Shown here: one piece after another, positions 9,993-59,979 of the stretch
How positions within the stretch are numbered: position 1 is the stretch's first letter
Layout of the letters: each line of letters opens with the position of its first letter
NCBI GenBank assembly: GCA_963749595.1
Contig: CAVVNJ010000003.1
Location: forward strand, 25,532 to 89,531
Reading direction: 5' to 3'
From: Candidatus Woesebacteria bacterium
GTDB taxonomy: Bacteria > Patescibacteriota > Microgenomatia > UBA1400 > UBA1396
Length of the DNA: 64,000 bases
Translations under genes and position numbers: made by a program
The notes under the pieces: model-generated
What the model was told of the DNA's origin: nothing
The model's database searches: none
The model's input: only the letters and a program-made list of their open reading frames with translations

Positions 9993-9993
9993 T

Positions 9994-28803: not shown

Positions 28804-28825
28804 CATTAATTTTCCGGACAAGTGT

Positions 28826-30117: not shown

Positions 30118-30465
30118 ATGAGTCATTTGACCGCGGACCAAATTAATCGATTGCAGTCGATACTTGAGGAAAAGTTGACCGGGCTGCATGGCTTCAAGAC
30201 CAGCATGATCGAGGAAAATCCGATCAATAATCCTGATCGGGTCGAAGAGAACGAGGCTGGTGATGATGCCGTTGAGGAGTTTGGGATTCTAAATGCCGAA
30301 ACTCTGGAACAAGCCTCCGGCGACATGATTGATGAAGTTGAGGCGGCGTTGCTGCGGATTAAAGCCGGCACCTACGGCCATGATGAAATAACCGGCGAGC
30401 CGATTCCTTTCGAAAGACTGCTGGTTGTTCCCGAAGCGCGCACCGCCGCCCGCGACATGGCATGA
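30118..30465 (+). CDS. DksA/TraR-family-like protein lacking the zinc-finger cysteines
   Basis: An acidic coiled-coil region is followed by AALLRIKAGTYGHDEITGEPIPFERLLVVPEARTA, which is collinear with G.YG.Ce.CGe.I...RL...P.a..C but without Cys. Confidence 0.45.
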   Translation: MSHLTADQINRLQSILEEKLTGLHGFKTSMIEENPINNPDRVEENEAGDDAVEEFGILNAETLEQASGDMIDEVEAALLRIKAGTYGHDEITGEPIPFERLLVVPEARTAARDMA

Positions 30466-32833: not shown

Positions 32834-32876
32834 GGTGGAAGTATAACACTGGCCGCGACTGACGAGGTATCGTATA

Positions 32877-33744: not shown

Positions 33745-34578
33745 TTGGCCACAAGATCTCACGACATCCCAACTCCGGCCGAAAGACGTCAGGAACGGGA
33801 AAAAATTGCCCAAAAAATTGTGACCGAGAGTCGGGGTAATCAGCGCAAAGCCCTTAAATTACTGGCGGAACAACTTAGCCCCCCGCTGGGCCATTCTGAA
33901 CTTTTGGTTTCTTTGTTTGCCATGGCTGAGCGCTTGCTGCCGCGTTCCGGGGAATTTGAAATAATTGTCAGCGATGAAACTAGTGGTCGTATTCCCAGTT
34001 TAATTTTTCAAGATATTCTTAATCGCCAACGGTCCAAAATAAATAAGGACCCCTTGGTTATTTCTTTCTTACTTGGTGGCAGAATTAGTAAGGTTCAAGC
34101 TCGGGCGGTCCAGAATTTTGTGGCCATTCCGCCAAAGTCACTGGCCGAAAAGCTTCGCCAACCGTTAATTGTCACTGAATATGTCGACCGCGGCTTAAGT
34201 CTACAAGCCTTTCTAAACACTTTTTACCGACAAGGAATTAGTCCAGTCGTGGCAGCGGTAAGCGTTAGAGAGGACCCAGCATTCTACCGATTTATCTTTG
34301 AAAAAAATCCGAGTCAGCCTTCCGGAAAAAAAACGCTCAACGATTTATTTATCGTCGGCGATTCACTGGAACATGAAGGGGGCTGGGGTGTATTTTTTCG
34401 CGACAATCCACTCGGTAGTGGTGTGGTAAAAGGTGGTAAGGAAAAAAGTCCGCACCCAGCGTCGGTTCTCCAATCGACTGCGACGCTAAATAAAGAAGAA
34501 ATTCGAGCCAAAATAAAAAAGTCTCGCGACGAGGCAGCGCTGGTGGCGGAAGTATTTGCTAGACTTCTAAAATTGTAA
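33745..34578 (+). CDS. PRT-fold (HGPRT-like) array paralog 2
   Basis: TPAERRQEREKIA; IIVSDETSGRIPSL; FLLGG; LIVTEYVDRGLSL; VVAAVS; SPHP; EAALVAEVFARLLKL*. TTG start. Confidence 0.8.
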   Translation: MATRSHDIPTPAERRQEREKIAQKIVTESRGNQRKALKLLAEQLSPPLGHSELLVSLFAMAERLLPRSGEFEIIVSDETSGRIPSLIFQDILNRQRSKINKDPLVISFLLGGRISKVQARAVQNFVAIPPKSLAEKLRQPLIVTEYVDRGLSLQAFLNTFYRQGISPVVAAVSVREDPAFYRFIFEKNPSQPSGKKTLNDLFIVGDSLEHEGGWGVFFRDNPLGSGVVKGGKEKSPHPASVLQSTATLNKEEIRAKIKKSRDEAALVAEVFARLLKL

Positions 34579-34586
34579 GGAGAATA

Positions 34587-35387
34587 ATGCCTAAAACTCG
34601 ACCTATCGACCAATCGACTACAGCTGAAAAGCGCCGGATTAACGCGGAAAAAATCCTACAAATTGGCTCAGGTAATTGGGAGCGGACGCTGACCGAGCTA
34701 AAGACTAGTTTGAACCGACCGGAGTTGAAGAGTACCGGGATATTAGAAACGATGTTCGATCTTTGTGAAAAACTCCGCCCGATAGCAACTGATCTTGATG
34801 TGATCATTAGCGACGAAGCGAGTGGGCGGGTGCCGAGTCTCATTATTAAATCTACTCTTGATGCCTTTAGAGAACAGCAAGGTTTGCCCCCACTTAAAAT
34901 TTTTTTCCTCGTGGGAGGTTATTCTACTTTTGAACAAAAAGATTCTGTCGCCGAGTTTGTTCGCACGCACGCTGTAGAATTCCGCCGGAGCTTGATCGTG
35001 ACCGAAATAATCGAATCGGGCGAAAGTATACGCGAATTTCTCAAACCTTTTTCCCAGAATGGCCTGAAACCGATCGTGGCCAGCGTATCGGTTGCTCGTG
35101 ATCCTAGTACGTATCGTCAGTTGTTCTCCAATAAGCTGATTTATGGAGAGGTTGCTCGTGGTGGAGCCGGGCAGATATTTTACGGACTGGCTGGCCGCCG
35201 GATGGCAGGGATTGTTAAGGGGAGTCGATCGGTGGCCCATCCGGAGAGCTTAAAAGCCAGACTGAATGAGCCGACAATGAAAGCCGAAGCTCAGCGGGGA
35301 ATTCAACTAGCTCGTTCAGACATTGCCTTGATCGGTCAGGTTTACGCTGGCTTGTTAAGCGGAAAAGAAAGGCCAAAAAATGTTTAA
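34587..35387 (+). CDS. PRT-fold (HGPRT-like) array paralog 3
   Basis: TTAEKRRINAEKI; VIISDEASGRVPSL; FLVGG; LIVTEIIESGESI; IVASVS; VAHP; SDIALIGQVYAGLL. An SD aaggag is present. Confidence 0.8.
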   Translation: MPKTRPIDQSTTAEKRRINAEKILQIGSGNWERTLTELKTSLNRPELKSTGILETMFDLCEKLRPIATDLDVIISDEASGRVPSLIIKSTLDAFREQQGLPPLKIFFLVGGYSTFEQKDSVAEFVRTHAVEFRRSLIVTEIIESGESIREFLKPFSQNGLKPIVASVSVARDPSTYRQLFSNKLIYGEVARGGAGQIFYGLAGRRMAGIVKGSRSVAHPESLKARLNEPTMKAEAQRGIQLARSDIALIGQVYAGLLSGKERPKNV

Positions 35388-36165
35388 AAAAACTCGGCCC
35401 GTCGACGTCCAGTCTCCAGCTGATCGTCGACGAAACTTGGCGAAAATCATCACTCAGGGAAAAACTCCCGACGTTGCATTAAGACTAACCGCCGCGAAAG
35501 TACCGGATTCTCTTTTTAACAACCATGAACTTTTACAGGCAATCTATGGTCTTTGCGAAAAACTAGTGCCTCTGGCTAAAGAGATTGAGATAATTGTTGG
35601 CGACGATGCTAGCGGGCGGCTGCCAAGCTTACTGATAAAACACAGCTTGGATGCTGTGCGCCAAAAAATGGGTCTACCGCCTATACCGATTCGCTTTATC
35701 GCTTCGGGGAGGTCAACCGGTGAACAAACCGAGGCTGTTCGTCACTACTTGGAAGAGCATAAGTCTGAACTAGCGTCAGCGGTGATTGTAACCGAGTTTA
35801 TGAGCAGCGGGGAAAGTATGGCTGAGTTGGTAAGAATGTTCAGGGGGCTGGATTTAGAGCCGATCGTCGCGGCGGTGTCAATTGGTGGTGAGCCAGAGTT
35901 TTATCGGGAGAAGATACAGGCAAAAATCATTTATGGTCAGATCGGGCAAGCGGGCCTCGATTTTTACGGCTCTAAGAGTAGGCCATTTTCTGGTGTGAAT
36001 AAAAAAATGGGCGCGCGTGATAGTGCCCACTCCGAACCGACCAAAAAATATGAGGCAAAAACCAAGGAACAGCAAATTGATGTTCAGAGGACAATAAATG
36101 CGGCCCGCGATGATGTGGCTTTGGTGGGTGAGGTTTTCTCCAGGCTGTTGGCGAGGAGAAAATAG
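35380..36165 (+). CDS. PRT-fold (HGPRT-like) array paralog 4
   Basis: SPADRRRNLAKI; IIVGDDASGRLPSL; FIASG; VIVTEFMSSGESM; IVAAVS; DDVALVGEVFSRLL. Confidence 0.8.
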   Translation: MFKKTRPVDVQSPADRRRNLAKIITQGKTPDVALRLTAAKVPDSLFNNHELLQAIYGLCEKLVPLAKEIEIIVGDDASGRLPSLLIKHSLDAVRQKMGLPPIPIRFIASGRSTGEQTEAVRHYLEEHKSELASAVIVTEFMSSGESMAELVRMFRGLDLEPIVAAVSIGGEPEFYREKIQAKIIYGQIGQAGLDFYGSKSRPFSGVNKKMGARDSAHSEPTKKYEAKTKEQQIDVQRTINAARDDVALVGEVFSRLLARRK

Positions 36166-36184
36166 TTATTTACACTGGAGCCAA

Positions 36185-36943
36185 ATGAAATCAAGAACCA
36201 TCGATCAAAAAACTGTATCTGAGATTGTGATGCCTGGGGATAAAGACAAGATTTTGGAGGCTTTGGCCGGGCGCTTAAGAAGCAATTTCCAATCTATCGA
36301 AGTGCTCCAATCTTGTTATGAGCTTTGCGCTCAGTTGGCCCGAGATCCTGGCCGCTATGACACCATCATCAGCGATGATGCTAGTGGGCGATTAGTCAGC
36401 CTATTAGTCAAATCGGTTTTAGATCGAACACGGGAGAGAAAGGGGCTCAAGCCGCTGAATTTACGCTTTGTAGCCGGAGGAATCAACCGTTCCGATCAGA
36501 AAATAGCTATTCGAGAATATCTAGCAAAACATCATTCAGAATTTGGTCGGATCTTGTTAGTAACCGAAATTGTGGATACTGGAGATAGTATGCGCAATTT
36601 GCTACGACTTTTTGCTGATTTCAAATTAAGTCCTGATGTTGCCAGTGTCTCAATTGCAAAATTACCGGATAAATACCATGTCTTATTTTCGAACAAGCTA
36701 ATTTACGGAAGTCTTGGTTACGCTGGAGGCAATCTTTATGGTTTCGATTCCCGTCGGCAAGCGGGGGTAGATAAAAAGAGCACAGCGTCTTCCGCTCATC
36801 CGGCAAGTCTGAGAGCCACCGAGCTTAGGGGAGGCAACCAAAGAGTGGCACAACAAATACAATCAAGTGTTAATCAGACGAGGAAGGAGATCAATCTTAT
36901 CTCAGCTGTTTTTTTGCGCTTAATGGATTCAGAGAGAGTATGA
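36185..36943 (+). CDS. PRT-fold (HGPRT-like) array paralog 5
   Basis: TIISDDASGRLVSL; FVAGG; LLVTEIVDTGDSM (closest to the canonical PRPP loop); VASVS; SAHP. Start moved to the ATG at 36185, which has an SD. Confidence 0.8.
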   Translation: MKSRTIDQKTVSEIVMPGDKDKILEALAGRLRSNFQSIEVLQSCYELCAQLARDPGRYDTIISDDASGRLVSLLVKSVLDRTRERKGLKPLNLRFVAGGINRSDQKIAIREYLAKHHSEFGRILLVTEIVDTGDSMRNLLRLFADFKLSPDVASVSIAKLPDKYHVLFSNKLIYGSLGYAGGNLYGFDSRRQAGVDKKSTASSAHPASLRATELRGGNQRVAQQIQSSVNQTRKEINLISAVFLRLMDSERV

Positions 36944-37728
36944 GCCGTCGGACATCAGACCAATTACTGTCAGAATTTCACCCCTCAAAGGCGGATCAAA
37001 TTCGTCATAGTGCCGCACAAATTATTCAGGAGGTAGATGGAAGCAAAGAACAGACCCTGCTATTGCTAGCCGACCAACTCCATCATCCCTTAAATAGTGA
37101 GGCACTAATCACGGCGTTGTTTTCCTTAAGTGAGCAATTAGTACTTCAAGAAAAGGATTTTCAAATTCTGGTCGGTGATGAATCAAGCGGTCGTTTGCCA
37201 AGCTTACTAGTCAAAAAACTATTCGATTCCGTGCGAAGGAAGAGAAATTCACCCCCAATTCCGTTTATTCCACTGATCGGTGGCGGATTGAGGGGGGAAC
37301 AAAAAGCGGCTTTGGAAGATTATATTGCCCAGAATCGTGGGAAATTGCAGGGTGCTTTGATCGTGACGGAATACATCCAGTCCGGCGAGAGCATGCATGA
37401 TACTTTAAACATTTTTCGTCGGTATGATCTTCATCCCACTGTAGCGGCAATTTCAGCAGCGGCAGAAAGAGGTGCTTATCTGGGCTTGATTCCGAATAAA
37501 TTGGTACTCGGGAAAGATCAATCGAATGTAGGAGTTTATCTATGGAGCAAGGCTCGAGCGGCAGGTGTAGAGAAGCGGACTTCTGCTGGCCCGCACCCGG
37601 TGGCTCTAAAAAACAGAATCAGCGATCCGGATGAGCGACGGGAAATTCAGGAGAATATTAATCAGTCGCGGCGAGATATCGCTCTGATTGCCGAGGTGTT
37701 TGCCCAGCTGTTGGAACGAAAAAAATAG
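36940..37728 (+). CDS. PRT-fold (HGPRT-like) array paralog 6
   Basis: ILVGDESSGRLPSL; LIGGG; LIVTEYIQSGESM; TVAAIS; GPHP; RDIALIAEVFAQLL. ATGA overlap with paralog 5. Confidence 0.8.
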   Translation: MSRRTSDQLLSEFHPSKADQIRHSAAQIIQEVDGSKEQTLLLLADQLHHPLNSEALITALFSLSEQLVLQEKDFQILVGDESSGRLPSLLVKKLFDSVRRKRNSPPIPFIPLIGGGLRGEQKAALEDYIAQNRGKLQGALIVTEYIQSGESMHDTLNIFRRYDLHPTVAAISAAAERGAYLGLIPNKLVLGKDQSNVGVYLWSKARAAGVEKRTSAGPHPVALKNRISDPDERREIQENINQSRRDIALIAEVFAQLLERKK

Positions 37729-37740
37729 TACACTCGGGTT

Positions 37741-38610
37741 ATGAAAAAAATATCTCCTGACCAAATAGATACTATTTTTCAAGAGACCTCAGCTGATACC
37801 GCTGATGAGCGCAATGGAGCGGTTCTACTGAAATTATCTGAACATTTGAAAAGTAATCTTGACACTCCCGAAGTGTTATCAGCGTGCTATGAATTGTGCA
37901 AAAAATTAGCGGCTGATCCGGCAAAATACGATACCATCATCAGCGATGATGCCAGTGGCCGCTTGCCCAGTTTGTTGCTGAAAGAAATCTTAGATCAACT
38001 CCGAATCCGGCAAAATCTACCCCCCCTAAAGATCTGGTTTTTGTCCGCCGGTAGAAATCGATTAGAACAACGCGAGGCGATTGCCAAGTTCATTAATCAG
38101 CATCTTGACGATCTGCACCATGCCCTGATTGTTACCGAAATCGTTGATTCCGGCGAAAGCATGAAGAATTTCTCGCAAATATTCAAAAATTTTAGTTTGC
38201 TTCCTGATATCGCTAGTGTCTCTGCGGTCGTCGATCCCAGCTATTATCAGGGACTTTTTGTTAATCAATTGATTGTGGGTCAACAGGGCAGGGTTGGCGG
38301 GTATCTTCATGGCGAAGCGGCTCGATTCCAAGCAGGAGTGTCCAAGCAAGGCATGCGCCAACCCAGCGCTCATCCGCAATCTCTTCGCGAGGCGGCGCGT
38401 CCTGGGGATCGAGTGGATGTGCAAAGAGAAGTGAATCGTACGCGCCAAGAGATAGGCCTAATTGCTAAAGTATTTCTTAAGCTGTTAGAAATTGAGGAGA
38501 AGGAGGCAGGTGAAAACAAGGGTAGTGGATCAAACAAACAATCAGGAACGACCGGCAACCCAAGCCGAAGAATTGAGGATACAAGCGGAAACTATCATCG
38601 GAGAAAGTGA
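37741..38610 (+). CDS. PRT-fold (HGPRT-like) array paralog 7, with a ~40-aa C-terminal read-through overlapping paralog 8
   Basis: TIISDDASGRLPSL; FLSAG; LIVTEIVDSGESM; IASVS; SAHP; EIGLIAKVFLKLLE. It then continues for about 40 aa instead of stopping. Confidence 0.75.
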   Translation: MKKISPDQIDTIFQETSADTADERNGAVLLKLSEHLKSNLDTPEVLSACYELCKKLAADPAKYDTIISDDASGRLPSLLLKEILDQLRIRQNLPPLKIWFLSAGRNRLEQREAIAKFINQHLDDLHHALIVTEIVDSGESMKNFSQIFKNFSLLPDIASVSAVVDPSYYQGLFVNQLIVGQQGRVGGYLHGEAARFQAGVSKQGMRQPSAHPQSLREAARPGDRVDVQREVNRTRQEIGLIAKVFLKLLEIEEKEAGENKGSGSNKQSGTTGNPSRRIEDTSGNYHRRK

Positions 38611-39295
38611 GGGGGATGTAAAAAAAGCTCTGAAAGAGCTGGCCCAACAAGTCGACTCACCGTTAAATAAACCGGATTTGCTCGAAGCCATGTATTTATT
38701 GTGCGAGAAGCTGATTTCCCGGGTAGAAGAATTCTCGGTAATTATCAGCGACGAATCAAGCGGAAGGCTAGTTAGCTTGTTGGTAAAAAATCTGTTTGAC
38801 CGAAAGCGCTCATCGCCGGTGCCAATTACTTTTTTATTAGGCGGAAGGCTAGATTCGCCGCAGCGCAAGAACGTGATCGATTATCTGCGTCAACATCGAT
38901 CGAAATTGCAAAATGCTTTAATTGTTTCCGAATATCTTGAGTCGGGTGACAGCATGGCCGAGTTTTTGGCGGATTTTCGTTTGCAGAATCTGAAAGCCAA
39001 GGTAGCAGCGGTGTCCGCCATTGGAGTGGGCAATAGATATAGTCGATTATTTCCGGAAGAACTAATTGCCGGCAAGCTTTCTTCATCGGTTGGTATTTGG
39101 TTGCATGATGAATCTCTAGCCACTGGTGTTGACAAAAACTTTGCCGAGGGTCCATTTCCGAATCGGATTAAAGACGAAGACGAAACTTGGTCTCAACAGA
39201 AAAAAATAAGGATGCAGCACTCGGTTAATCAGGCTCGTCGGGACATTGCCTTGATTGCTGAAGTTTTTGCCCAGATGTTTGGACTACCGAGATGA
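38510..39295 (+). CDS. PRT-fold (HGPRT-like) array paralog 8
   Basis: GGAGG-cag-GTG start. VKTRVVDQTNNQERPATQAEELRIQAE; VIISDESSGRLVSL; FLLGG; LIVSEYLESGDSM; VAAVS; RDIALIAEVFAQMF. Confidence 0.8.
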   Translation: MKTRVVDQTNNQERPATQAEELRIQAETIIGESEGDVKKALKELAQQVDSPLNKPDLLEAMYLLCEKLISRVEEFSVIISDESSGRLVSLLVKNLFDRKRSSPVPITFLLGGRLDSPQRKNVIDYLRQHRSKLQNALIVSEYLESGDSMAEFLADFRLQNLKAKVAAVSAIGVGNRYSRLFPEELIAGKLSSSVGIWLHDESLATGVDKNFAEGPFPNRIKDEDETWSQQKKIRMQHSVNQARRDIALIAEVFAQMFGLPR

Positions 39296-39324
39296 TATAA
39301 ACTTGGCTGAGGAGGGGGAGGACA

Positions 39325-40116
39325 GTGAAAACAAGAGTAGTGGATCAGGTAACCAATCAGGAACGATCGGCAACCCGGGCCGAAGAATTGAAAATACAAG
39401 CGGAATCTATCATCGAAAGCAATAAAGGGTTATATAAATCAACCTTGAAGGAGTTGTCCAGACAGGTAAAGTTTCCACTAAATCAACCGGATTTGTTGGA
39501 CCCAATGTATTTGCTGTGCCGGAAGCTAATTCCCCGATCTGAGGAATTTAAGGTGATTGTTAGTGATGAGGGTAGTGGGCGACTGGTTAGTTTATTAGTC
39601 AAGGATCTGTTCGATCGTCGGCGCCTAGCTCCGATACCAATAACTTTTATACTCGGAGGAAGAATGACTCCTTCACAACGGAAGAAGGTGAGTGAACATT
39701 TTGCTCGGCACCGATCGGAATTAGATCACGCCTTAATTGTTTCCGAATATCTTGAATCTGGTAATAGCATGGCCAAATTTCTGGCCGACTTTCGCCAACA
39801 AAATTTGCAGGCAACGGTCGCTACCATCTCGGCTTTGGAATCGAGCGAAGAATATCGCCAATTATTTTCGGAAGAACTTATTGTCGGCCAATTACGTTCG
39901 AGCAGCGGTTTACAGTTGTATCGTGAGCCTGATGCCACTGGTGTTGAGAAGCGCTCTGCCGAAGGTCCGTTTCCAGATCGGATTAAGGATGAGGCCGAGT
40001 CTCTGACTAAGGCTGAAAAAATTAGCATCCAGCGTCCAATCAACCAAGCCCGCCGGGACATCGCTCTCATTGCAGAGGTGTTCGATAGATTATTAAAGAG
40101 CAACGAGGTTTCATGA
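39325..40116 (+). CDS. PRT-fold (HGPRT-like) array paralog 9
   Basis: GTG start after GGAGG. VKTRVVDQVTNQERSATRAEELKIQAE; VIVSDEGSGRLVSL; FILGG; LIVSEYLESGNSM; VATIS; RDIALIAEVFDRLL. It is the closest relative of paralog 8. Confidence 0.8.
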   Translation: MKTRVVDQVTNQERSATRAEELKIQAESIIESNKGLYKSTLKELSRQVKFPLNQPDLLDPMYLLCRKLIPRSEEFKVIVSDEGSGRLVSLLVKDLFDRRRLAPIPITFILGGRMTPSQRKKVSEHFARHRSELDHALIVSEYLESGNSMAKFLADFRQQNLQATVATISALESSEEYRQLFSEELIVGQLRSSSGLQLYREPDATGVEKRSAEGPFPDRIKDEAESLTKAEKISIQRPINQARRDIALIAEVFDRLLKSNEVS

Positions 40117-40907
40117 TGAAGTCACGACCGTTCGATACTCAATCTGATTCTCGTCAGCGTAAGGCTGAGGAAAGAGAGAAAATAGCCTCTGAAATAATCG
40201 ACCTTAACCAGGGAGACCTGGGACGAACTTGGGTTTCGTTAGCCGAAAAAGTTCATTTTCCTTTTGATAGCGAAAAATTGATCAGGGTAATGTTCCAATT
40301 AAGTGCGAAGCTAATTGCGCGCGAGTCGGAGTTTAAGAGGCTGATTAGCGATGAAGCGAGTGGTCGGTTGCCAAGTTTAATAATTAAGGATTTATTTGAC
40401 CGACGGCGGAAAGAGCGGGGGCAGGAAGAGATGCCATTATTATTCTTGTTGGGTGGAAGAATGCCAGATCAGCAGCATAGAGTGGTGCGGGAATACGTTT
40501 TAAAGCATCGGCATGAACTAGCGCAATCGCTGGTGGTTTCAGAATACATCGCTTCTGGTGAAAGCATGGCTTGGTTTTTAGATATTTTCCGGCAATTTGG
40601 TTTGGAGCCAGTGGTCTCCGCGGTTACTTGTCGCTATGGTCAGAAAGACTACAAAGTCCATTTTCCCAATGAGCTAATCGTTGGTGCCGACGATAGTACG
40701 ACCGGCCAGTATCTATGGAGTAAAGGATTAGCAACCGGAGTGGAAAAACCGCCAGAATCGGTGAAAAATCCTCCGCCTTTTCCGGAAGTTCGCAAAAATT
40801 ATCAGTGGTCGACTAGTTCCCGTGAGGCCCAGCAGGCCATATTGCGAGCGAGGGAAGACGTAGCCTTAATTTCGGAAGTATTTGCTCGATTGTTGAATAT
40901 TCAATAA
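40113..40907 (+). CDS. PRT-fold (HGPRT-like) array paralog 10
   Basis: RLISDEASGRLPSL; FLLGG; LVVSEYIASGESM; VVSAVT; EDVALISEVFARLL. ATGA overlap with paralog 9. Confidence 0.8.
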   Translation: MMKSRPFDTQSDSRQRKAEEREKIASEIIDLNQGDLGRTWVSLAEKVHFPFDSEKLIRVMFQLSAKLIARESEFKRLISDEASGRLPSLIIKDLFDRRRKERGQEEMPLLFLLGGRMPDQQHRVVREYVLKHRHELAQSLVVSEYIASGESMAWFLDIFRQFGLEPVVSAVTCRYGQKDYKVHFPNELIVGADDSTTGQYLWSKGLATGVEKPPESVKNPPPFPEVRKNYQWSTSSREAQQAILRAREDVALISEVFARLLNIQ

Positions 40908-40915
40908 GTTGACTT

Positions 40916-41785
40916 ATGCCAGGAAGAATTAATCGATTATCAAACGACGAAGGTGCCAGTGACTCAGCCGAAAAACGTCGCGAGTTAAAAGTACTAGCCG
41001 CCAAGATTCTTGCTGAGGGCGGACAAGATCGCGACCAGACTCTAAAATTGCTTGCCGAGAGTCTGAAGTCGCCACTGAGAGATTTTGGCTTGCTAAAGGC
41101 GCTATATTCATTAAGTCAACAACTATTACCACGATCGAATGATTTCGCAGTGATTGTCAGTGACGAAGCCAGTGGACGAATACCGAGTTTATTAGTTAAA
41201 GAGCTCTTTGATCGAGTGCGATTGAATCGGGGAGAGACCAAAATTCCAATCACTTTTTTGCTAGGTGGGTACACTCTACCTCAACAAAAGGCAAAGGTGG
41301 CAGATTTTGTTGCTGGACACAAAGGGGAGTTGGAACAGGCGCTAATCGTCTCGGAATTTATGATGTCCGGAGAAAGTATGGCAAATACTTTGGAAGATTT
41401 TCACCGACAGGGTTTGGATCCGACGGTAGCGGCAGTATCCACTTGGTACAAAAAGGGTGAATATAAACGTCTTGCTTCAGATAAATTAGTGATTGGGGTT
41501 GACGATGACAATATCGGCGCCACCAGATTGTGGGGGGAAACTACCTCCTCTGGAGTGGTTAAGCTCGAAACCTCGCCTGGGCCGCATCCGGAGTCGACAA
41601 AACTGGTGAAGAAGGGAAATGACCTGCACGATATGTCAGAGATTGACTTCGCGGAACCAGTTCAGAAAGACATCGCTTTGGCTAGGGGAGAGATTTATCT
41701 TGTGGCGGAGGTATTTTTTGGTATGCTAGCCTCGCCTCCCAAACAGTCTTGGCTTCAGCGTTTAAAAAATGGGGGGAAAGAATAA
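40916..41785 (+). CDS. PRT-fold (HGPRT-like) array paralog 11
   Basis: VIVSDEASGRIPSL; FLLGG; LIVSEFMMSGESM; TVAAVS; GPHP; GEIYLVAEVFFGML plus a short tail. Confidence 0.8.
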   Translation: MPGRINRLSNDEGASDSAEKRRELKVLAAKILAEGGQDRDQTLKLLAESLKSPLRDFGLLKALYSLSQQLLPRSNDFAVIVSDEASGRIPSLLVKELFDRVRLNRGETKIPITFLLGGYTLPQQKAKVADFVAGHKGELEQALIVSEFMMSGESMANTLEDFHRQGLDPTVAAVSTWYKKGEYKRLASDKLVIGVDDDNIGATRLWGETTSSGVVKLETSPGPHPESTKLVKKGNDLHDMSEIDFAEPVQKDIALARGEIYLVAEVFFGMLASPPKQSWLQRLKNGGKE

Positions 41786-42580
41786 ATGCAACCGCGAGTT
41801 AATGTATTAAATTTGCGTCAGGAGAAAGACAGCCAGGCTGAGGTTCGTCGGGAGTTGCGTAAGCTGGCTGAGCAAATATTGAAACGGGGAAATGGTGAAA
41901 AACAGAAGACCTTGAAGTTGCTGGAAAAATATCTTGAATACCCGTTTGAAGTCGATGTTCTTAAAGCAATGTTCTCGCTTAGTCAGCAATTAATTTCCCG
42001 GTCCGACAGTTTTGATACGATTATTGGTGACGAAGGCAGTGGTCATTTAATAGCCTTAATGTTAAAGGAGGTCTTTGATCGCGAGCGGGTGAAGCGTGGG
42101 CAGGAGAAAATTCCAATTACTTTTTTGCTGGGTGGCTTGACTACCGATGGCCAGGAAAAAAAAGTTAATGAGTTTGTCGGACAACACCAGGCTCAGCTGA
42201 GTCGTGCACTGATTGTTACGGAATATATCTTGTCCGGGCGAGGCATGGTTAATTTGCTGAAGAGCTTTTCGCACTATGGCCTGACGCCGGTTTTAGCCGC
42301 AGCAACTACCCAATATGAGAAGAAAGACTATGCTGAACTTTTTGGGGTCGAGTTAGTCATTGGTACTGAAGAGAGTGGCGCGGGATTGAATTTATATTCT
42401 AAACCCGCCTTGACTGGGGTACAAAAAAGGCCGGAGAGCCCCGGTCCTCACGCTGAAGCATATAAAAAACTGGTTTCCCAGTTAGGGTTGAAAAAAGAAA
42501 TCCAGAGAGAAGTTAACTTTGGTCGTGACCAGGTTTTTCTGATTGCCGAGGTTTTTTACGGACTACTACAGTCCAAATGA
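41786..42580 (+). CDS. PRT-fold (HGPRT-like) array paralog 12 (most divergent)
   Basis: TIIGDEGSGHLIAL; FLLGG; LIVTEYILSGRGM; VLAAAT; GPHA; DQVFLIAEVFYGLL. It starts immediately after the paralog 11 stop. Confidence 0.8.
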   Translation: MQPRVNVLNLRQEKDSQAEVRRELRKLAEQILKRGNGEKQKTLKLLEKYLEYPFEVDVLKAMFSLSQQLISRSDSFDTIIGDEGSGHLIALMLKEVFDRERVKRGQEKIPITFLLGGLTTDGQEKKVNEFVGQHQAQLSRALIVTEYILSGRGMVNLLKSFSHYGLTPVLAAATTQYEKKDYAELFGVELVIGTEESGAGLNLYSKPALTGVQKRPESPGPHAEAYKKLVSQLGLKKEIQREVNFGRDQVFLIAEVFYGLLQSK

Positions 42581-47363: not shown

Positions 47364-47738
47364 AATAACGATCGGTCGGGTGAGGGGTAAGACGATCGGT
47401 TTTGGCTTCTCCCAAATTGCGTTGAAGTGTTCACCCACCGCTATTGATCGGTAATCTAACCCTCCACTTCCCGACCCCGGAAAAATTTCTTCAATTTTGT
47501 TCAACTGGAGAAAAACCCGAATAATTGATCCGAATTGAGGCGGATTGATAATTTAGAAAGCAGAAAGATAAGGCTATAGTTGTCGCCTTTTGCTGAGAAA
47601 AGCCGTTTTTGGGCTTCACAGCGGGTCAATATCTGGTAGCGACTGTTCTTTTCCCAGGTAAGCACGCGTTGGTCGTAAAAATGATATTCGTACGTTCTGG
47701 AATTTGATCCAGAAAGAAAAACATCCCTCCCATTTTCA

Positions 47739-47758
47739 TGTACTAGTGTACTAGTACA
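47739..47758. promoter_or_regulatory. Second copy (19/20) of the 20-bp palindrome TGTACTAGT(G)TACTAGTACA with conserved flanks
   Basis: 47734-47770 (tttcatgtactagtgtactagtacatagaaaaagatg) is near-identical to 29281-29317 (ttccatgtactagtatactagtacaagaaaaagtatg), including the ATG. Confidence 0.6.
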
Positions 47759-48006
47759 TAGAAAAAGATGAAGCTCCTGAAGATCGTTAGTCGACTTTAT
47801 GGGCGGGTAATATATTCCCGCTGACGCTTTGTACACCGTCAGAATATTGGTGACTGTGTACATAGTGCTGGGGAGATACTGGTAACTCTCAGTAGTCGAG
47901 TTTCTTTGTGAGAATACCTATTACTAGCCTTGGACCCAAAGAGTCCCCAAGATTGAGCTCTTATTGCCGAGCTGACCAAGACGTTATTTTTTTCGTCTAA
48001 TCCCCT

Positions 48007-48185: not shown

Positions 48186-49190
48186 TTGATAGATCCGCAA
48201 AATCGCCTAAATTCCCCCGCTAGCACTCCAAAGCCTATGCCTGCTAATCTGACTGGTCAAAACCTACGTTCTCAAATTAAAGAATATCTTGAACACATCG
48301 AGGTCGAACGCAACCTCTCGCCCCTGACGGTACGTGACTATTCACTCTATCTCGATCGTTTTGCGACATGGGCCTCGGTCTACGGCATCATGAGCATTAC
48401 CCAATTGGATCTCTATGGGGTTAAAAAATATCGTCTGCATTTAGCCAGGATAAAAAACCATAAGGATCAACCTATTTCGGCTCGTACTCAGGGCTATTAC
48501 ATTATTGCTCTCCGTTCATTTTTGAAGTGGCTGATCAAAATGGACGTGACCGTTTTGCCGCCGGAAAAGATTGACTTGCCAAAGATAGATCCAGGGGCAA
48601 TGCATTTTTTGTCGCCGGAGCAGATGAATCGCTTATTATCTCAACCCGATATTCATTCCATCCAGGGATTACGCGATCGGGCACTGTTGGAAGTTTTATT
48701 TTCCACTGGACTAAGGGTCTCGGAATTAGTTTCGCTGGATCGCGACCAGGTGAATTTGGAACGACGAGAATTTGGCGTGCTGGGCAAAGGTCGCAAGGTA
48801 CGGGTGGTTTTTTTAAGCACTGACGCGGCGGATTGGCTGGAGCGATATATAGAACGCCGTACCGACCCTTGGACGCCGGTTTTTATTCGTCACGCCAAGG
48901 GAATTGATCCCAGTGAAGACGGCGAGAAAATGCGTCTTTCTACCCGCTCCGTGCAGAGAATCGTGGAGACCTATCGAAAAAAAGCTACTATACCAGTTAA
49001 AATTACGCCACATGGCATTCGCCATACTTTTGCCACCGACTTGTTGCGCAATGGTGCCGGCCTGCGTGACGTTCAAGAACTTTTGGGCCACAAAAACTTA
49101 GCGACGACGCAAATTTATACCCATGTGACTAAGCCGGAGTTGCGCCGCGTCCACGAGAAATACCATTCGCACTCTGATAAAGATCAATGA
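48186..49190 (+). CDS. xerC: Tyrosine site-specific recombinase, XerC/XerD family
   Basis: N-terminal SAM-like domain (EYLEHIEVERNLSPLTVRDYSLYLDRF). The catalytic residues lie in RALLEVLFSTGLRVSEL and HGIRHTFATDLLRNGAGLRDVQELLGHKNLATTQIYTHV. The start is TTG at 48186 or ATG at 48237. Confidence 0.9.
   Translation: MIDPQNRLNSPASTPKPMPANLTGQNLRSQIKEYLEHIEVERNLSPLTVRDYSLYLDRFATWASVYGIMSITQLDLYGVKKYRLHLARIKNHKDQPISARTQGYYIIALRSFLKWLIKMDVTVLPPEKIDLPKIDPGAMHFLSPEQMNRLLSQPDIHSIQGLRDRALLEVLFSTGLRVSELVSLDRDQVNLERREFGVLGKGRKVRVVFLSTDAADWLERYIERRTDPWTPVFIRHAKGIDPSEDGEKMRLSTRSVQRIVETYRKKATIPVKITPHGIRHTFATDLLRNGAGLRDVQELLGHKNLATTQIYTHVTKPELRRVHEKYHSHSDKDQ

Positions 49191-50577: not shown

Positions 50578-50585
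<8 letters not shown>
50178..50585 (-). CDS. Hypothetical helical protein, paralog of the 49669-50127 product
   Basis: See 49669-50127. Its start overlaps the gyrA stop region. Confidence 0.55.
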
Positions 50586-53374
<2,789 letters not shown>

Positions 53375-55078: not shown

Positions 55079-57127
<2,049 letters not shown>

Positions 57128-57140
57128 CTACGTTGTCGGT

Positions 57141-57779
57141 TTTTCACGAATGGCTTCACGAGTTTGGGATCTATACCCTCCCAGTGTTTTGCCTCCTAAA
57201 TTACCCCCGAAAGTGACCCCAGATAGGTTAGTTTTAGGAGCAGTTTGTGGTTACTCTAGGGACTTTTGGGCAGATGGGGTCTACCAGCGGTCCATCTGTG
57301 GCCATGGCGGGCAAATAAGGGTCAAGAATGGGCGAGTGGATCCGCCGATAAACTGCTATCGGTTAGTATTGGGTAAGAATCGAAGTGTATAAACAGACTC
57401 ATGGCTGATACTCGAGTTCGATTAACCTTAGGACCAACTACTTACCGATTATTGAAAGATCGAGCCAAGTTATTAGAATTAACCGTACCTAATTTTATTC
57501 GTTATTTGATTTATCAGGAGCTTGGCCAAGCTGGAGCGCTACCTAAATCGACACCGGCTAGAAAAGAGCATGCCGATAGTATCTTTGGTTTTTAACTAGT
57601 CGATCGGTCCCCAAATTACCCTCTGTTTGCCCGGATGGACTGAAACTAACCCAGTAATGGACCCCTATTGCCCGCAAGGTCTGAATTAGGGCATGTTTAG
57701 GGTCACCCTTGGGAGCAATTTGAGGTCTCCCTAGGGGACAGTTTGGGAGGCAAAAGTGCGGGGAGATATAGATCCCAAC
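57141..57779. repeat. ~0.64-kb element bounded by ~35-bp terminal inverted repeats and carrying an RHH gene; related to the 10568-10976 element
   Basis: The left repeat 57162-57196 is gtttgggatctataccctcccagtgttttgcctcc. The reverse complement of the right repeat 57746-57779 is gttgggatctatatctccccgcacttttgcctcc. The 43-nt left flank is shared with 10568-10610, and there are internal TCCCYAAATTACC and GGTC-NN-CCC words. Confidence 0.65.
57401..57595 (+). CDS. Ribbon-helix-helix (CopG/Arc/MetJ-like) DNA-binding protein
   Basis: TRVRLTLGPTTYRLLKDRAKLLELTVPNFIRYLIYQEL follows the strand-helix-helix pattern. It is 64 aa, with no SD and TATAAA 7 nt upstream of the ATG. Confidence 0.6.
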   Translation: MADTRVRLTLGPTTYRLLKDRAKLLELTVPNFIRYLIYQELGQAGALPKSTPARKEHADSIFGF

Positions 57780-57834
57780 GCTTTCTTTCAGAGCGCGGAA
57801 GCGAGACCAACTACTCTGTAATATACTGAAGCCA

Positions 57835-59979
57835 ATGGCTGCGATACCGACTGTTACTCTGGAACTGCGGACCCCCCGCTCGGCTGAACAGACGGCGGAG
57901 GCAATGATCCAATTCTTTACCGCTCTCCCCTCCCCGCCCCGCGGCGTGATGGGTTTTTGGCGCCAGGCTCCGGCGATTACTTTGGAGTTTTTGAACCAGG
58001 GGCAAATGACCTACTGTTTGGCTTCCGTCCCGGTCAACTTATCCGACTATTTGCAAAGTCAGTTGGCAGCCGCCTATCCCGAGATTTTAATAAAACCCTT
58101 AGCCCACAACCCGCTGGAAGAATTTCGCGAATCAAAACCCAAAGACGGTGGTGAGTTAAAATTTTCGGCCGCGAGTTATTTCCCCTTGCGCACTTTTCGC
58201 GATTATAAGGAATCCGACCCGTTGGCTTCGGTGCTGTCGGCACTGTCAAAACTAAGCGAGGGCGAGACGGCAATGATTCAGTTGACGATCCGCAAAACGA
58301 GGGAGCGTTGGAAGCAAACCGCCCATTCTGCCCGCCAAAATTCCCCAGCCGGCTCCTCTGCTCTGGGTTTGCCGCACCAGGAGATAATCAACCGCAAGCT
58401 CGGTCAGACTTCCCTGGCCTTTCGCCTGCGGTTGCTCGTCCAAGCCGCCGACCAAGCGCGGGCGAAACAAATTACCGAGTCGTTGGCCACCGCCTATGGC
58501 GCCTTTCAATCAGAAACGAACAGCTTGATTTTCCGTCGCCCGCGCTTGCGCCGGGAAAAATTTCTCAGTGAGATTGTAGAACGACGCATTGGTCGGGCCA
58601 CCAATCACTTGTCTCTGGACGAAGCGGCCTCGCTTTTCCACTTGCCCAATAAGACCCTCTCCCCGATTAAAAATATTGCTTGGGGTAAAAATCTCCTCGG
58701 TGAGCCGCCGGAAAATTTGCCCACCTTCACCCAGACTAGCGAGTCGGAACGCCAACACCTGAATCTATTTTCCAAAGTCGAGTTTAAGAATCAGGAACAA
58801 ATCTTTGGCTTGAAGCGCACCGACCGGGCGCGTCACACCTACATTGTTGGTAAAAGCGGTACCGGTAAGTCGACTCTCTTGGCGAATATGATCATTAACG
58901 ATTTGAAACACAACGAGGGCTTGGCCGTAGTTGACCCACATGGCGACTTGATCGAAACGATACTCGACTATATTCCGAAACACCGTATTAATGACGTGAT
59001 TGTTTTTGATCCGGCCGATCCGCACGCCGTGGTTAAGCTGAATTTGTTTGAAGGCGGTTCGGAAGTTTATCGCGAGCTGGTAGCGTCCGGAATTGTGGCA
59101 ATTTTTCAAAAGATGTATGCCAAATCCTGGGGACCGCGCTTGGAGTATATTTTGCGCAACACGTTGCTGACGTTGTTAGACCGGCAAGCCAAGTTGGAGG
59201 ACGTGTTGCGCTTGCTCACCGATGAGCGATACCGGGAAAAGGTGGTGAGCGAGATGGACGATCAAGTTTTGAAAAACTTTTGGTTGGCTGAGTTTAACCA
59301 GATGCAGCCAAAACTGCGGACCGAATCGATTTCGCCGATTCTCAACAAGGTAGGTCAATTCGTCACCTCGCCGCTGATTCGCAACGTGGTGAATACGACC
59401 ACTAGCTCGTTTGACATCGAGGAAATCATGAATCAGGGCAAGATCTTGTTGGTTAACGTTTCTCAAGGCAAGCTGGGTGAGGATAACGCGGCGCTGCTGG
59501 GAGCAATGATTATTACCAAGATCCAGCTGGCGGCGATGAATCGCGTTTATCTGCCGGAAGAGCAGCGCCGCGACTTCTACCTTTACATTGACGAGTTTCA
59601 GAATTTTGCTACCACCTCGTTTATCAAAATCTTGTCGGAAGCGCGTAAGTACCGGCTGAATCTGATTTTGGCCAACCAGTACATTGCCCAGATACCGGAG
59701 GAAGTGCGGGCGGCCATTTTCGGCAACGCTGGCAACCTAATCAGTTTCATCGTTGGGGCGGATGACGCGACGCATTTGCAAAAAGAGTTTAACGGCAAAT
59801 ATACCCAAGAGGATCTGGTGTCTCTGGGACGCTACCAAATTATTTGTAAGTTGTTGATTGATGGTCAGGTTTCCCAGCCTTTTCCGGCCACGACGCTGCC
59901 CTTGGCCGGCTCAACTAACCAGAATCGGGAGAAAGTACTCCAAGTTTCCCGCGAGCGTTATGCCCGCAAGCGCACCTGA
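57835..59979 (+). CDS. TraD/TraG/VirD4-like (type IV coupling protein-like, FtsK/HerA superfamily) ATPase without TM segments
   Basis: Walker A is VGKSGTGKSTLL, followed by VVDPHGD. Walker B is FYLYIDEFQNF. The TraG-D_C-like region is YRLNLILANQYIAQIPEEVRAAIFGNAGNLISFIVGADDATHL. The N-terminal ~320 aa are of unknown fold. Confidence 0.7.
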   Translation: MAAIPTVTLELRTPRSAEQTAEAMIQFFTALPSPPRGVMGFWRQAPAITLEFLNQGQMTYCLASVPVNLSDYLQSQLAAAYPEILIKPLAHNPLEEFRESKPKDGGELKFSAASYFPLRTFRDYKESDPLASVLSALSKLSEGETAMIQLTIRKTRERWKQTAHSARQNSPAGSSALGLPHQEIINRKLGQTSLAFRLRLLVQAADQARAKQITESLATAYGAFQSETNSLIFRRPRLRREKFLSEIVERRIGRATNHLSLDEAASLFHLPNKTLSPIKNIAWGKNLLGEPPENLPTFTQTSESERQHLNLFSKVEFKNQEQIFGLKRTDRARHTYIVGKSGTGKSTLLANMIINDLKHNEGLAVVDPHGDLIETILDYIPKHRINDVIVFDPADPHAVVKLNLFEGGSEVYRELVASGIVAIFQKMYAKSWGPRLEYILRNTLLTLLDRQAKLEDVLRLLTDERYREKVVSEMDDQVLKNFWLAEFNQMQPKLRTESISPILNKVGQFVTSPLIRNVVNTTTSSFDIEEIMNQGKILLVNVSQGKLGEDNAALLGAMIITKIQLAAMNRVYLPEEQRRDFYLYIDEFQNFATTSFIKILSEARKYRLNLILANQYIAQIPEEVRAAIFGNAGNLISFIVGADDATHLQKEFNGKYTQEDLVSLGRYQIICKLLIDGQVSQPFPATTLPLAGSTNQNREKVLQVSRERYARKRT

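Follow-up and report, generated by a model that had tools for sequence, protein, structure and literature searches.

Between gyrB (55079-57058, minus strand) and a gene for a VirD4/TrwB-like ATPase (57835-59979, plus strand; Pfam TrwB_AAD_bind, 1e-12), in the 64-kb window that constitutes the whole stretch of DNA analysed here, lies a segment of 0.64 kb in which inverted repeats enclose a single small gene. This raises the question of what kind of genetic unit the segment, designated E1, represents. An earlier note on this DNA had placed it between these two genes, both of which are confirmed, and had proposed either a small mobile or mobilisable module or a partition or regulatory cassette. 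The reading favored here, to which we give about an even chance, is that E1 belongs to a family of discrete foldback elements of Patescibacteria, bounded by terminal inverted repeats (TIRs) and integrated as non-autonomous mobile elements in the sense of MICs and MITEs. The family is very rare and previously undescribed; Pfam, NCBIfam, PHROG and Rfam contain no matching entry, and none of the papers found describes it.

Anatomy of the Element

E1 (57141-57779, plus strand) consists of a left extension, a left arm, the gene and a right arm. The inverted repeat is found at 57164-57224 and 57718-57778, where 61 nt are 72% complementary. The best inverted local alignment scores 40, compared to 18.8 ± 2.3 in 300 dinucleotide shuffles, none of which reaches it (z 9.1). 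The repeats said earlier to bracket the ORF are thus significant against shuffled sequence, and their extent had been understated: in a gapped alignment of ~183 nt, 123 columns are identical, and the symmetry spans each non-coding arm in its entirety.

Each arm is ~180 nt long and is made up of a conserved terminal core of ~32 nt and a run of iterons. On the left side, the core (57164-57196, plus strand, TTGGGATCTATACCCTCCCAGTGTTTTGCCTCC; homologous across all six ends of the family) is preceded by an extension specific to the left end (57141-57163, plus strand, TTTTCACG-N4-GCTTCACGAGT, with TTCACG present twice at a 12-nt period) and followed by tandem degenerate 11-bp iterons (57197-57340, plus strand, CTAAATTACCC, CCGAAAGTGAC and so on), with GGGCAGAT/GGGCAAAT boxes at 57268 and 57309. 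On the right side, inverted 11-bp iterons (57596-57745, minus strand, CCAAACTGTCC, CCTAGGGAGAC and so on), which include TTTGCCC/ATTGCCC boxes near 57625 and 57667, lead to the right core (57746-57779, minus strand, reverse complement TTGGGATCTATATCTCCCCGCACTTTTGCCTCC). Between the arms, the ORF (57401-57595, plus strand) is preceded by a palindrome read from the sequence, CCGATA-N6-TATCGG (57345-57362, plus strand), which is its candidate operator; a comparable palindrome, TTTTCCGA-N14-TCGGAAAA, occupies the same place in L119, the third element described below. A TATAAA box (57388-57393, plus strand) situated 7 nt ahead of the ATG is the putative -10 element of a leaderless or short-leader mRNA, and L119 has a counterpart, TATAAC, also 7 nt ahead of its ATG. 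The GC content of E1 and of the second element, E2, is 47%, compared to 51% for the whole window.

The iterons are apparent as a periodicity. In the arms, identity at lag 11 is 0.412 versus 0.247 (z 9.4), and the signal returns at multiples of this distance (lag 22, z 4.6; lag 33, z 3.9). It is specific to the elements, as the six arms occupy ranks 1-8 for 11-bp periodicity among 1162 window tiles. The pooled consensus, CSAAATGGYCC, is degenerate, and the spacing corresponds to about one iteron per helical turn. There are about 2 × 8-16 iterons, with inverted orientation between the arms. The reiterated words that the earlier note had listed are singly marginal (TCCCYAAATTACC, 2 copies, reached in 11/300 shuffles; GGTCWCCC, 3 copies, 13/300; GGTTAGT, 7 copies with one mismatch, 1/300), but they are the visible part of this strong periodicity.

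A Family with Homologous Ends

The left end of E1 and its flank had been seen to recur at 10568, which had led to the suggestion that the ends belong to a repeat family. The recurrence marks the left end of a second element, E2, which is complete and had been missed; it is a gene-less foldback of 0.4 kb (10568-10973, plus strand) at a distance of 47 kb. Positions 57141-57201 of E1 and 10568-10629 of E2 are 79% identical over 62 nt (E 4e-8), and E2 has a TIR of its own (39 nt, 82%). Its left core (10592-10624, plus strand, TGGGGATCTATATCCTCCCGGCAATTTGCGCCC) is followed by left iterons (10625-10700, plus strand) in which AATGTTCC-type words at 10627, 10638, 10649 and 10660 keep an exact 11-nt phase, the strongest 11-bp periodicity of the entire window. 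The right core is located at 10942-10973 (minus strand, reverse complement TGGGAACATATATCTTCCCGCCAACTTGCGCC). The TIRs of E1 therefore do have a further copy within the window, and the family extends beyond it, as L119 comes from another metagenome. L119 has 49% GC within flanks of 61% GC. For E2 and L119, the inverted-repeat scores reach z values of 12.1 and 19.7, again with none of 300 shuffles equalling the observed score. Altogether three elements are known, two of them within the window, with a size of 0.4-0.66 kb.

The six ends of these elements are homologous. They share the core consensus ..GGGAWC-TATAYC-N11-TTGCSYC, and the cores read as weakly palindromic (GGG-N4-TATA-N4-CCC). The terminal motif TTGGGATCTATANCNNCCC is present three times in the 64-kb window versus 0.03 expected. 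A profile of the two L119 ends finds the E2 ends as its top two matches in the window (E 1e-7 and 5e-5), a profile of the E2 ends matches those of L119 (1e-9 and 1e-7) and E1 (0.03 and 0.04), and a profile of the E1 ends matches the left end of E2 (1e-5) and both ends of L119 (3e-4 and 5e-3); the nhmmer profile of all six ends comprises 62 columns. The ends of E2 are nearer to those of the gene-bearing L119 than to those of E1, as is usual for a miniature and its full element. Similarity between the two arms of one element amounts to only 65-85%, and the copies may therefore be ancient and no longer active. The left extension of E1 has its sole other occurrence at the left end of E2, and this left-flank motif shows no above-chance similarity to the flanks of L119 or to those on the right side. 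The extension either belongs to an asymmetric end or represents a common target.

Additional members were sought. Longer end patterns scanned in metagenome and viral collections gave no further element, and the metagenome, viral, plasmid and phage collections yielded neither a fourth element nor a longer one with the same ends. None of 72,556 plasmids and 50,697 phages shows similarity to the elements, and Rfam 15 gives nothing at the gathering score and a lone 12.7-bit noise match at E ≤ 1. A scan of genome contigs (596 Gb) with the 17-mer GGGATCTATAYCYYCCC gave at least 118 single chance matches in unrelated taxa; the word is too short and the scan uninformative. A decayed third copy near 47717-47950 was considered as well, and as the matches are at noise level (E 0.04-3), it is not claimed.

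The Encoded Protein

Judged by its conservation, the 64-aa ORF is a real gene. In a tblastx comparison of E1 and L119 it is the sole conserved frame (E 2e-14), and an exhaustive search (1.84e9 representatives, ~15 billion proteins) returns one true homologue (P0004; 48% identity, E 1e-6). This homologue is encoded on another metagenome contig, inside the L119 element with its homologous ends, at the same ORF position and in the same orientation. The full-form elements encode proteins of 64-66 aa. Two large matches from the same search (P0005 and P0006) were rejected as translated-repeat artefacts, so the protein is, as far as its sequence tells, not a detached transposase domain. Moreover, none of the 1.84e9 representative proteins has this domain fused to a transposase domain. 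One locus from a protein-pattern scan of metagenomes (L120) was discarded, since the match there falls in an alternative reading frame of a 441-aa gene encoded by the opposite strand, and a scan of viral proteins gave nothing.

The earlier note had described the ORF as encoding a ribbon-helix-helix (RHH) protein. The ORF is found as described; the fold has no curated family at threshold behind it and is probable by several weak concordant matches. RHH proteins (CopG/Arc/MetJ) are recognized by an N-terminal strand followed by two helices, in about 45 residues. In the AF2 monomer (pLDDT 71), helices span residues 12-24 and 29-43 as expected for RHH, while residues 2-10 form a helix and not a strand. 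The predicted core comprises residues 1-43; the tail that follows is disordered and carries a conserved D-x-x-F close to the C-terminus. A profile search gives AvtR (4hv0, E 0.008), the top of the Foldseek list consists mostly of AvtR, Arc, CopG, AtaR, TacA and NikA, every one at E > 1, and the best plasmid match, a weak one, is a CopG-family gene. P0004 comes near to RHH_5 (0.062) and a NikA-like family (0.055) in Pfam, both short of the cut-offs. The window protein has no Pfam, NCBIfam or PHROG match at E ≤ 1, nor a match to a ParR or ParG family in Pfam or NCBIfam even at E 10.

Genomic Context

The three elements are located in three unrelated intergenic contexts. E1 lies between divergent genes, E2 and L119 between convergent 3′ ends. 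E2 starts 7 nt past the tsf stop codon (10561), with its terminal core 31 nt past it, and borders on the other side on a gene for a DUF1189 membrane protein (11029-11985, minus strand), whose 3′ end faces it. L119 is flanked by HGSNAT and an 89-aa ORF. Together with the GC contrast of L119, these contexts indicate insertion.

The position of E1 is not conserved in relatives. Where the VirD4-like proteins are 79% and 86% identical, these relatives carry small membrane-protein genes and no element in the gyrB-virD4 spacer, with the gyrB leader and a TATACT box conserved on either side; at this protein identity they are too diverged for a nucleotide-precise empty site. Relatives at ~70% identity have a different synteny and are of no help on the spacer. 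The VirD4-like ATPase is encoded by a chromosomal gene that is conserved (4047 homologues) and present without the element in relatives, and no such gene adjoins E2 or L119, so the position of E1 beside it looks coincidental. Cumulative GC skew flattens near 58 kb, and E1 adjoins gyrB. A reading of the segment as oriC with DnaA boxes was rejected, as the iterons do not correspond to DnaA boxes and the same architecture recurs in a second element at a distance of 47 kb.

Target-site duplications were sought in the sequence of the junctions, and no direct repeat is seen at any of the three pairs (E1, E2 and L119). The 40 window ORFs that were scanned include no transposase, no partition NTPase (ParM, ParA) and no element-adjacent recombinase, and no autonomous element with the same ends is present in the window or in the compared loci. 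The sole recombinase gene of the window, for an Xer-like tyrosine recombinase (48186-49190), is ~8 kb away from E1 and probably has a housekeeping role, since it is syntenic in a relative that does not contain the element.

The Favored Reading and Its Alternatives

Terminal inverted repeats surround a short element in which the conserved ORF encodes an RHH-like protein only and no transposase. From the conserved discrete termini, the three contexts, the gene-less derivative and the GC contrast of L119 we infer that the elements have moved by transposition. Of the two proposals of the earlier note, that of a small mobile module is hence the favored one; its mobility is deduced, and neither a target-site duplication nor a precise empty site nor a cognate enzyme was found. 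The full form, represented by E1 and L119, would carry one gene with its own promoter, encoding the RHH protein, and the short form, represented by E2, the arms alone. Insertion into intergenic DNA would be carried out by a recombinase or transposase encoded elsewhere that acts on the terminal cores. In the working model that seems most likely, RHH dimers would occupy the iterons in a cooperative manner, with about one dimer for each 11 bp, like ParR does on R1 parC, and this binding would repress the element's own promoter. The two curved arms would then fold back together, bringing the terminal cores close to each other for the trans-acting enzyme. The palindrome at 57345-57362 could, however, be the true and sole operator.

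An unlikely alternative, though the one that survives best, is that E1 is a static cassette comparable to ParR/parC or omega systems: a unit derived from a plasmid or phage, fixed in the chromosome and autoregulated, that organizes or silences DNA, with E2 as a decayed copy that has lost the gene. The iteron arrays on both sides of a promoter and an RHH gene, as in R1 parC/ParR, fit such a cassette, as they fit the earlier proposal of an RHH protein on iterated operators. The best weak matches to regulators of the CopG/AvtR type agree with it as well, and the disordered tail with its D-x-x-F motif could recruit a partner. However, no ParM, ParA or TubZ gene adjoins any copy. This, together with the lack of a Pfam ParR/ParG match and of any similarity among the plasmids and phages searched, speaks against the part of that proposal in which a plasmid partition locus was captured. 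The arms are inverted, whereas parC repeats are direct, and a regulator needs no outermost 32-nt core that is distinct from the iterons and conserved in six ends. The gene-less E2 still keeps both cores intact. The signs of insertion argue against a static unit too.

Secondly, there is a slim chance that E1 is a self-contained minimal mobile element with the RHH protein as its only factor. The protein would coat the iterons, fold the arms and thereby mark and pair the ends, and its C-terminal peptide would recruit a host enzyme to the cores for breakage and joining, for instance the Xer-type recombinase encoded at 48186-49190 or a replication or repair nuclease. Two lineages at 48% identity keep the ORF, the promoter position and the arm architecture, which suggests that the gene is integral rather than a passenger. 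Besides, no representative protein joins this domain to a transposase, the conserved tail motif could serve as the recruitment peptide, and an Xer-like recombinase is at hand in the host. On the other hand, such an element has no known precedent and the interaction of the RHH protein with a host enzyme is purely supposed. The terminal cores do not read like a dif-type site, a gene-less E2 with intact ends is what trans-mobilization by anything would give, and the extreme rarity of the family would be unusual for a self-sufficient element. If this reading were true, E1 would be the smallest protein-coding mobile element and would represent a new way of DNA movement in CPR bacteria.

Thirdly, and slimmer still in our estimate, the segments could be invertons, in which the inverted ends serve as sites for a site-specific recombinase that flips 0.4-0.6 kb and thereby switches neighboring genes. 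In E1 the repeats do bound a promoter-containing segment between the divergent gyrB and virD4-like genes, several loci share one inverted-repeat consensus as in the regulon of a master invertase, and a tyrosine recombinase gene is 8 kb off. But E2 and L119 are flanked by the 3′ ends of convergent genes, so that inverting a promoter there would switch no gene, and inversion leaves the long iteron arms and the whole-arm symmetry unexplained, while the recombinase is syntenic in a relative without the element. A Logan contig from another run that begins inside the right arm, at about 57726, was initially of interest as a sign of a repeat or an inversion; it was dropped, because the contig also ends at the unremarkable position 63817, which renders its breaks uninformative.

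Lastly, it is very improbable that these are REP/ERIC-like structural repeats, with hairpins or cruciforms that terminate or stabilize mRNA and an incidental ORF: E2 does begin just beyond the tsf stop and its DNA does fold better than shuffles (MFE -65 versus -44 kcal/mol, z -5.6), but pairing is limited to its termini and center with the iteron stretches unpaired, in the six ends it is the sequence and not the pairing that is conserved, phasing by 11 nt is a property of the DNA helix and not of RNA, Rfam offers no match and the ORF is conserved as a protein across genomes.

The reading as small mobile elements matters because the mobile DNA of Patescibacteria/CPR, with their tiny and largely uncultured genomes, is poorly catalogued. 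The E1 family joins transposon-like termini to an iteron-plus-RHH core like that of ParR/parC. If it is the RHH protein that organizes the ends, the family would offer a compact model from nature of end-binding architecture set apart from catalysis, and the small cis/trans pair might become a genetic handle for a phylum without genetic tools. Should E1 be no more than a MITE in decay whose regulator is a passenger, it would be of minor interest for annotation.

Comparison with Known Systems

Modules in which an oriT is combined with an RHH relaxosome accessory protein are those of the NikA, TraY and SmpO type. E1 resembles them in that a small, probable RHH gene stands beside inverted and direct repeats, and it happens to adjoin a gene for a VirD4-like coupling protein. 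Unlike these modules, it has no relaxase or recognizable nic site, the VirD4-like gene is chromosomal, and E2 and L119 are not beside one.

The KP repressor elements of the Drosophila P element, InsA of IS1 and OrfA of IS911 supply an end-binding domain only, which binds the termini and regulates transposition. E1 likewise encodes a probable DNA-binding protein alone. KP, InsA and OrfA are recognizable truncations or N-terminal parts of transposases, whereas no larger protein containing the E1 RHH is present among the 1.84e9 representatives.

Foldback/Galileo transposons of eukaryotes have long inverted arms composed of short repeats in internal tandem arrays. The majority of copies consist of arms alone; a small number possess a central coding region, which in Galileo is a P-type transposase gene. 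The E1 family has the same repeat-built inverted arms, in arms-only and gene-bearing forms. It differs in that its central gene encodes a probable RHH protein only, and the eukaryotic elements belong to another domain of life and are much larger.

In the parC/ParR system of plasmid R1, an RHH adaptor binds two arrays of 11-bp iterons that flank the promoter (PMC2241845). The DNA of the iterons has an intrinsic curvature, each iteron is bound by one dimer, and the resulting complex folds it back into a U (PMC2241845). Like this type II partition system, E1 has a probable RHH gene with 11-bp iteron arrays on either side of its promoter. Unlike R1, which has 2 × 5 direct repeats, E1 has its more numerous iterons in inverted arrays, and it contains no ParM or other NTPase partner. 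R1 ParR is 117 aa long; the E1 protein, with 64 aa, is half that size and has no detectable sequence relationship to it. Moreover, E1 is chromosomal, possesses separate terminal cores and has a gene-less relative.

MITEs and MICs are non-autonomous IS derivatives (PMC3129680). The E1 family is like them in being small, TIR-bounded, intergenic and devoid of a transposase, in having a short gene-less form beside a longer form with a non-transposase gene, and in the conservation of its ends across copies and genomes. It is unlike them in that no parent IS or transposase is known for it and no target-site duplication is seen, in its very low copy number (2 in 64 kb, 3 known), and in its arms of ~180 nt with phased 11-bp iterons instead of a simple TIR of 15-40 nt. 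Finally, the "passenger" of E1 is a DNA-binding protein that is conserved together with the element, and for this reason the RHH gene is probably no passenger.

The Inverted-Repeat Element beside gyrB

Between gyrB (55079-57058, minus strand) and the gene of a VirD4/TrwB-like ATPase (57835-59979, plus strand) lies a spacer of 776 bp, which indeed contains the inverted repeat described in the earlier note, with arms of 61 nt (57164-57224 and 57718-57778) that are 72% complementary. The top inverted local alignment of this spacer has a score of 40, which beats all 300 dinucleotide-preserving shuffles (mean 18.8 +/- 2.3, maximum 29), and a 19-nt terminal motif is present in three copies in the window, compared to 0.03 expected. 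With gaps allowed, the symmetry spans the entire non-coding arms of approximately 180 nt each, with 123 identical columns, and not just some 35 nt. An ORF of 64 aa (57401-57595) occupies the centre of this element, E1 (57141-57779). A Logan contig of 6092 bp from an independent assembly (run ERR12037366), with an identical VirD4-like gene, starts at approximately 57726, i.e., 53 nt inside the right arm, and the ORF's putative ribbon-helix-helix (RHH) protein is on record in two contigs, its neighbours in one. A second copy or variation between strains might account for the contig break and the extra protein record.

A Family of Three Elements

The left end of E1 had been seen to recur at 10568-10610. 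This match, with 79% over 62 nt and E = 4e-8, belongs to a whole further element, E2 (10568-10973), of which it forms the left end; the TIRs of E2 lie at 10592-10630 and 10935-10973 (39 nt, 82%). E2 is a pure foldback without a conserved ORF, its two halves being identical at 129 of 191 columns, and is situated between the tsf stop codon (10561) and the 3′ end of a gene encoding a DUF1189 membrane protein.

Among 5.8e9 proteins, a word-indexed search retrieves no match to the 64-aa protein other than itself. Run exhaustively against 1.84e9 cluster representatives, phmmer gives one true homologue, P0004 (66 aa, 48% identity, E = 1e-6); two larger phmmer hits are repeat artefacts. The P0004 gene lies on L119, a 2.5-kb JGI metagenome contig, within an inverted repeat (1149-1201 and 1756-1808; 53 nt, 85%) that encloses more inverted pieces. 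The ends of this third element align with those of E1 and E2 and are homologous to them, as cross-validated by profiles. A profile of the two L119 ends alone has the two E2 ends as its top two matches in the 64-kb window (E = 1e-7 and 5e-5), one of the E2 ends matches those of L119 (1e-9, 1e-7) and E1 (0.03, 0.04), and one of the E1 ends matches the left end of E2 (1e-5) and the L119 ends (3e-4, 5e-3). The suspected repeat family thus comprises a complete second element in the window and homologous ends in another metagenome.

In a six-frame comparison of E1 and the L119 element, the RHH ORF is the only conserved frame (E = 2e-14). Its orientation relative to the longer left arm is the same in both, and TATAAA (E1) or TATAAC (L119) precedes its ATG by exactly 7 nt. 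Judged by sequence conservation, the 64-aa ORF is a real gene, with an architecture that is conserved elsewhere. A TATAAA, TATAAC or TATACT box, 7-9 nt before the ATG and without a Shine–Dalgarno sequence, is found at 57388-57403 and 57815-57837 in the window, at 1426-1441 in L119, and in two relatives' loci with VirD4-like gene homologues (L121, 403-423; L122, 9989-10003), which suggests that mRNAs of this lineage are leaderless or have very short leaders.

Organization of the Arms

The words that the earlier note had found reiterated around the ORF are each marginal when taken alone, but they are parts of 11-nt units in the arms. Such units become visible in the six arms when each is written out starting after its terminal core, the conserved outermost part of the arm, for example CGAAATGATCC / GTAAATGTTTC / GGAGATGTTCC / CTTAATGTTCC in E2; the pooled consensus is CSAAATGGYCC. 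Over the six arms together, identity at lag 11 reaches 0.412, while shuffles give 0.247 (z 9.4), and harmonics of this signal appear at lag 22 (z 4.6) and at lag 33 (z 3.9). The signal is element-specific: tiles of E2 and E1 are at the top of 1162 window tiles, and the six arms rank 1 to 8. Each arm is thus made of two parts, in which a conserved 32-nt terminal core (GGGAWC-TATAYC-N11-TTGCSYC) is followed by a run of AT/GC-alternating iterons phased by one helical turn. This layout would be the signature of curved DNA that is bound repeatedly on one face.

In tblastn with the GyrA of L122, gyrA (50578-53374) changes frame at least five times within the N-terminal half, and tsf (9964-10561) has two overlapping frames near 10229-10503; these splits are either assembly indel errors or pseudogenes. 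Because both genes are split across frames, the assembly seems to carry indel errors, so that little weight should be put on where exactly the gaps fall in the arm alignments.

A 22-nt motif, TTTTCACG-N4-GCTTCACGAGT, precedes the left core in E1 and E2 and is present nowhere else in the window; in a comparison of flanks, it is missing at both right ends and in the L119 copy. This left-end specificity suggests either that the ends of E1 and E2 are asymmetric or that they have a common target. Just upstream of the window's Xer-like gene, 47717-47950 (e.g., GGCGGGTAATATATTCCCGC at about 47803) has a weak likeness to the E2 and L119 ends and to inner words, with all matches at noise level (E = 0.04-3); it may be a decayed solo end.

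Genomic Contexts

The host is a Patescibacteria bacterium. Its VirD4-like protein, with DUF8128 and TrwB domains, has 4047 homologues at E < 1e-50, of which the named ones are from Woesebacteria, Cerribacteria and the 'Patescibacteria group'. In L122/L123, where this protein is 79% identical, gyrB adjoins the virD4-like gene as in the window, and the 1012-bp spacer contains small membrane-protein ORFs and no inverted-repeat element. L121 (86% identical protein) stems from the JGI sample that also yielded L119; the 420 nt available upstream of its virD4-like gene contain an ORF for an 83-aa membrane protein and no element. E1 is thus not conserved in place in these relatives. What is kept with them on its two sides are 63 nt upstream of gyrB and a TATACT box before the virD4-like gene; the sequence between differs, and in relatives at approximately 70% identity the synteny differs as well. 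These 63 nt, which precede the gyrB start codon (57059-57101 in the window), are almost identical in L122/L123 despite approximately 79% protein identity, and look like a conserved gyrB leader or promoter element.

Each of the three elements has an intergenic site of its own, unrelated to the others: convergent genes face E2 and the L119 element with their 3′ ends, and divergent genes face E1 with their 5′ ends. The L119 element has a GC content of 49% within flanks of 61%; E1 and E2, at 47%, are close to it, though the host GC differs. L119 (58% GC) and L121 (59% GC) both come from JGI sample 3300037424, so that a single metagenome holds both the one other element with an RHH gene and the homologue most similar to the window's VirD4-like gene. 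They may be from one organism, in which case the RHH element would occupy another locus in a sister species than in the window genome.

The window has a second, unrelated palindromic repeat family (28608-28693, 30463-30519 and 31949-32033). Four copies of GGAATCATTCC form an 85-nt palindrome just upstream of tRNA-Leu(CAA) (28718-28804), and GGGATCGTCCC words form one of 82 nt (31949-32030), which has a partner at 30463-30519 and lies inside a queuosine-synthesis ORF (31697-32998). Seven matches to the pattern GGRATCRTYCC, compared to 0.34 expected, are found in the window, and words like those of this family are present in L122 (12153-12215, 14500-14565). Nine tandem paralogous genes at 33745-42580 (262-289 aa, 29-49% pairwise identity), in a stretch of low GC (45-47%), look like an expanded lineage-specific family; all five that were scanned are without a Pfam domain.

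The 64-aa Protein

The 64-aa protein has no Pfam, NCBIfam or PHROGs match at E ≤ 1, but weak matches concur, among them that of a two-sequence profile to the strand-helix-helix region of the viral RHH regulator AvtR (PDB 4hv0, E = 0.008). P0004 gives sub-threshold Pfam matches to NikA-like (0.055) and RHH_5 (0.062), and tblastn against plasmids gives a CopG-family regulator as its best match (47% over aa 5-42, E = 0.2). In the AlphaFold2 monomer (pLDDT 71), residues 12-24 and 29-43 are helical, and the monomer's non-significant Foldseek list consists mostly of AvtR, Arc, CopG, ORF56, AtaR, TacA and NikA. On this weak but concordant evidence, the protein is probably RHH. The N-terminal RVRLTLGP, identical in the window protein and P0004, would then be the DNA-reading strand. 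Residues 44-64 are predicted to be disordered, with a D-x-x-F motif near the end that is kept in both proteins.

Interpretation and Comparison with Known Systems

Integrated mobile DNA of the non-autonomous TIR type appears to fit best, given the discrete conserved termini, the unrelated contexts, the orthologous spacer without the element, the compositional contrast, and the gene-bearing and gene-less forms. A static ParR/parC-like regulatory cassette, which would account for the iterons, is improbable, as it fails on the separate conserved cores, the gene-less copy and the contexts.

While these features favour the mobile or mobilisable module proposed earlier, target-site duplications are absent from all junctions of the three elements, and the 40 window ORFs include no transposase, partition NTPase or element-linked recombinase. 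The sole recombinase among them, the Xer-like gene (48186-49190), has a syntenic counterpart in L122, which makes a housekeeping role probable. That the family is self-contained and recruits a host enzyme is somewhat less probable than the cassette. Neither in the window nor in the fetched loci did a larger relative with such ends turn up, and scans of metagenome, viral, plasmid and phage collections yielded only the three elements. The copies may be old, given that the similarity between arms is only 65-85%. An inverton is more doubtful again, because two of the three copies lie between convergent 3′ ends. That the elements are RNA or cruciform palindromes is very unlikely, since the 11-nt phase is a DNA feature, the iteron stretches pair poorly, Rfam matches are absent and the protein is conserved.

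The family would best be described as non-autonomous TIR elements whose interior resembles parC/ParR; hardly any descriptions of such elements exist for the phylum Patescibacteria. Non-autonomous TIR elements are MICs and MITEs in ISfinder terms (PMC3129680). Compared to these, the interior is distinctive, with the transposase absent and one tiny RHH gene, which is kept with the arms across lineages at 48% protein identity. The RHH protein would coat the iterons, autoregulate its own expression and fold the two arms together, so that the paired terminal cores could be acted on by an enzyme supplied in trans. As for the iterated operators of the earlier note, the anatomy of 11-bp iteron arrays supports them, and binding by the RHH protein is what we infer from it. 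This proposal follows from the nearest mechanistic analogue, parC/ParR of plasmid R1. In the R1 centromere parC, two sets of five 11-bp iterons surround a promoter in intrinsically curved DNA, and each iteron is bound by a single dimer of ParR, an RHH protein; the promoter is repressed and the DNA is folded back by approximately 150 degrees (PMC2241845).
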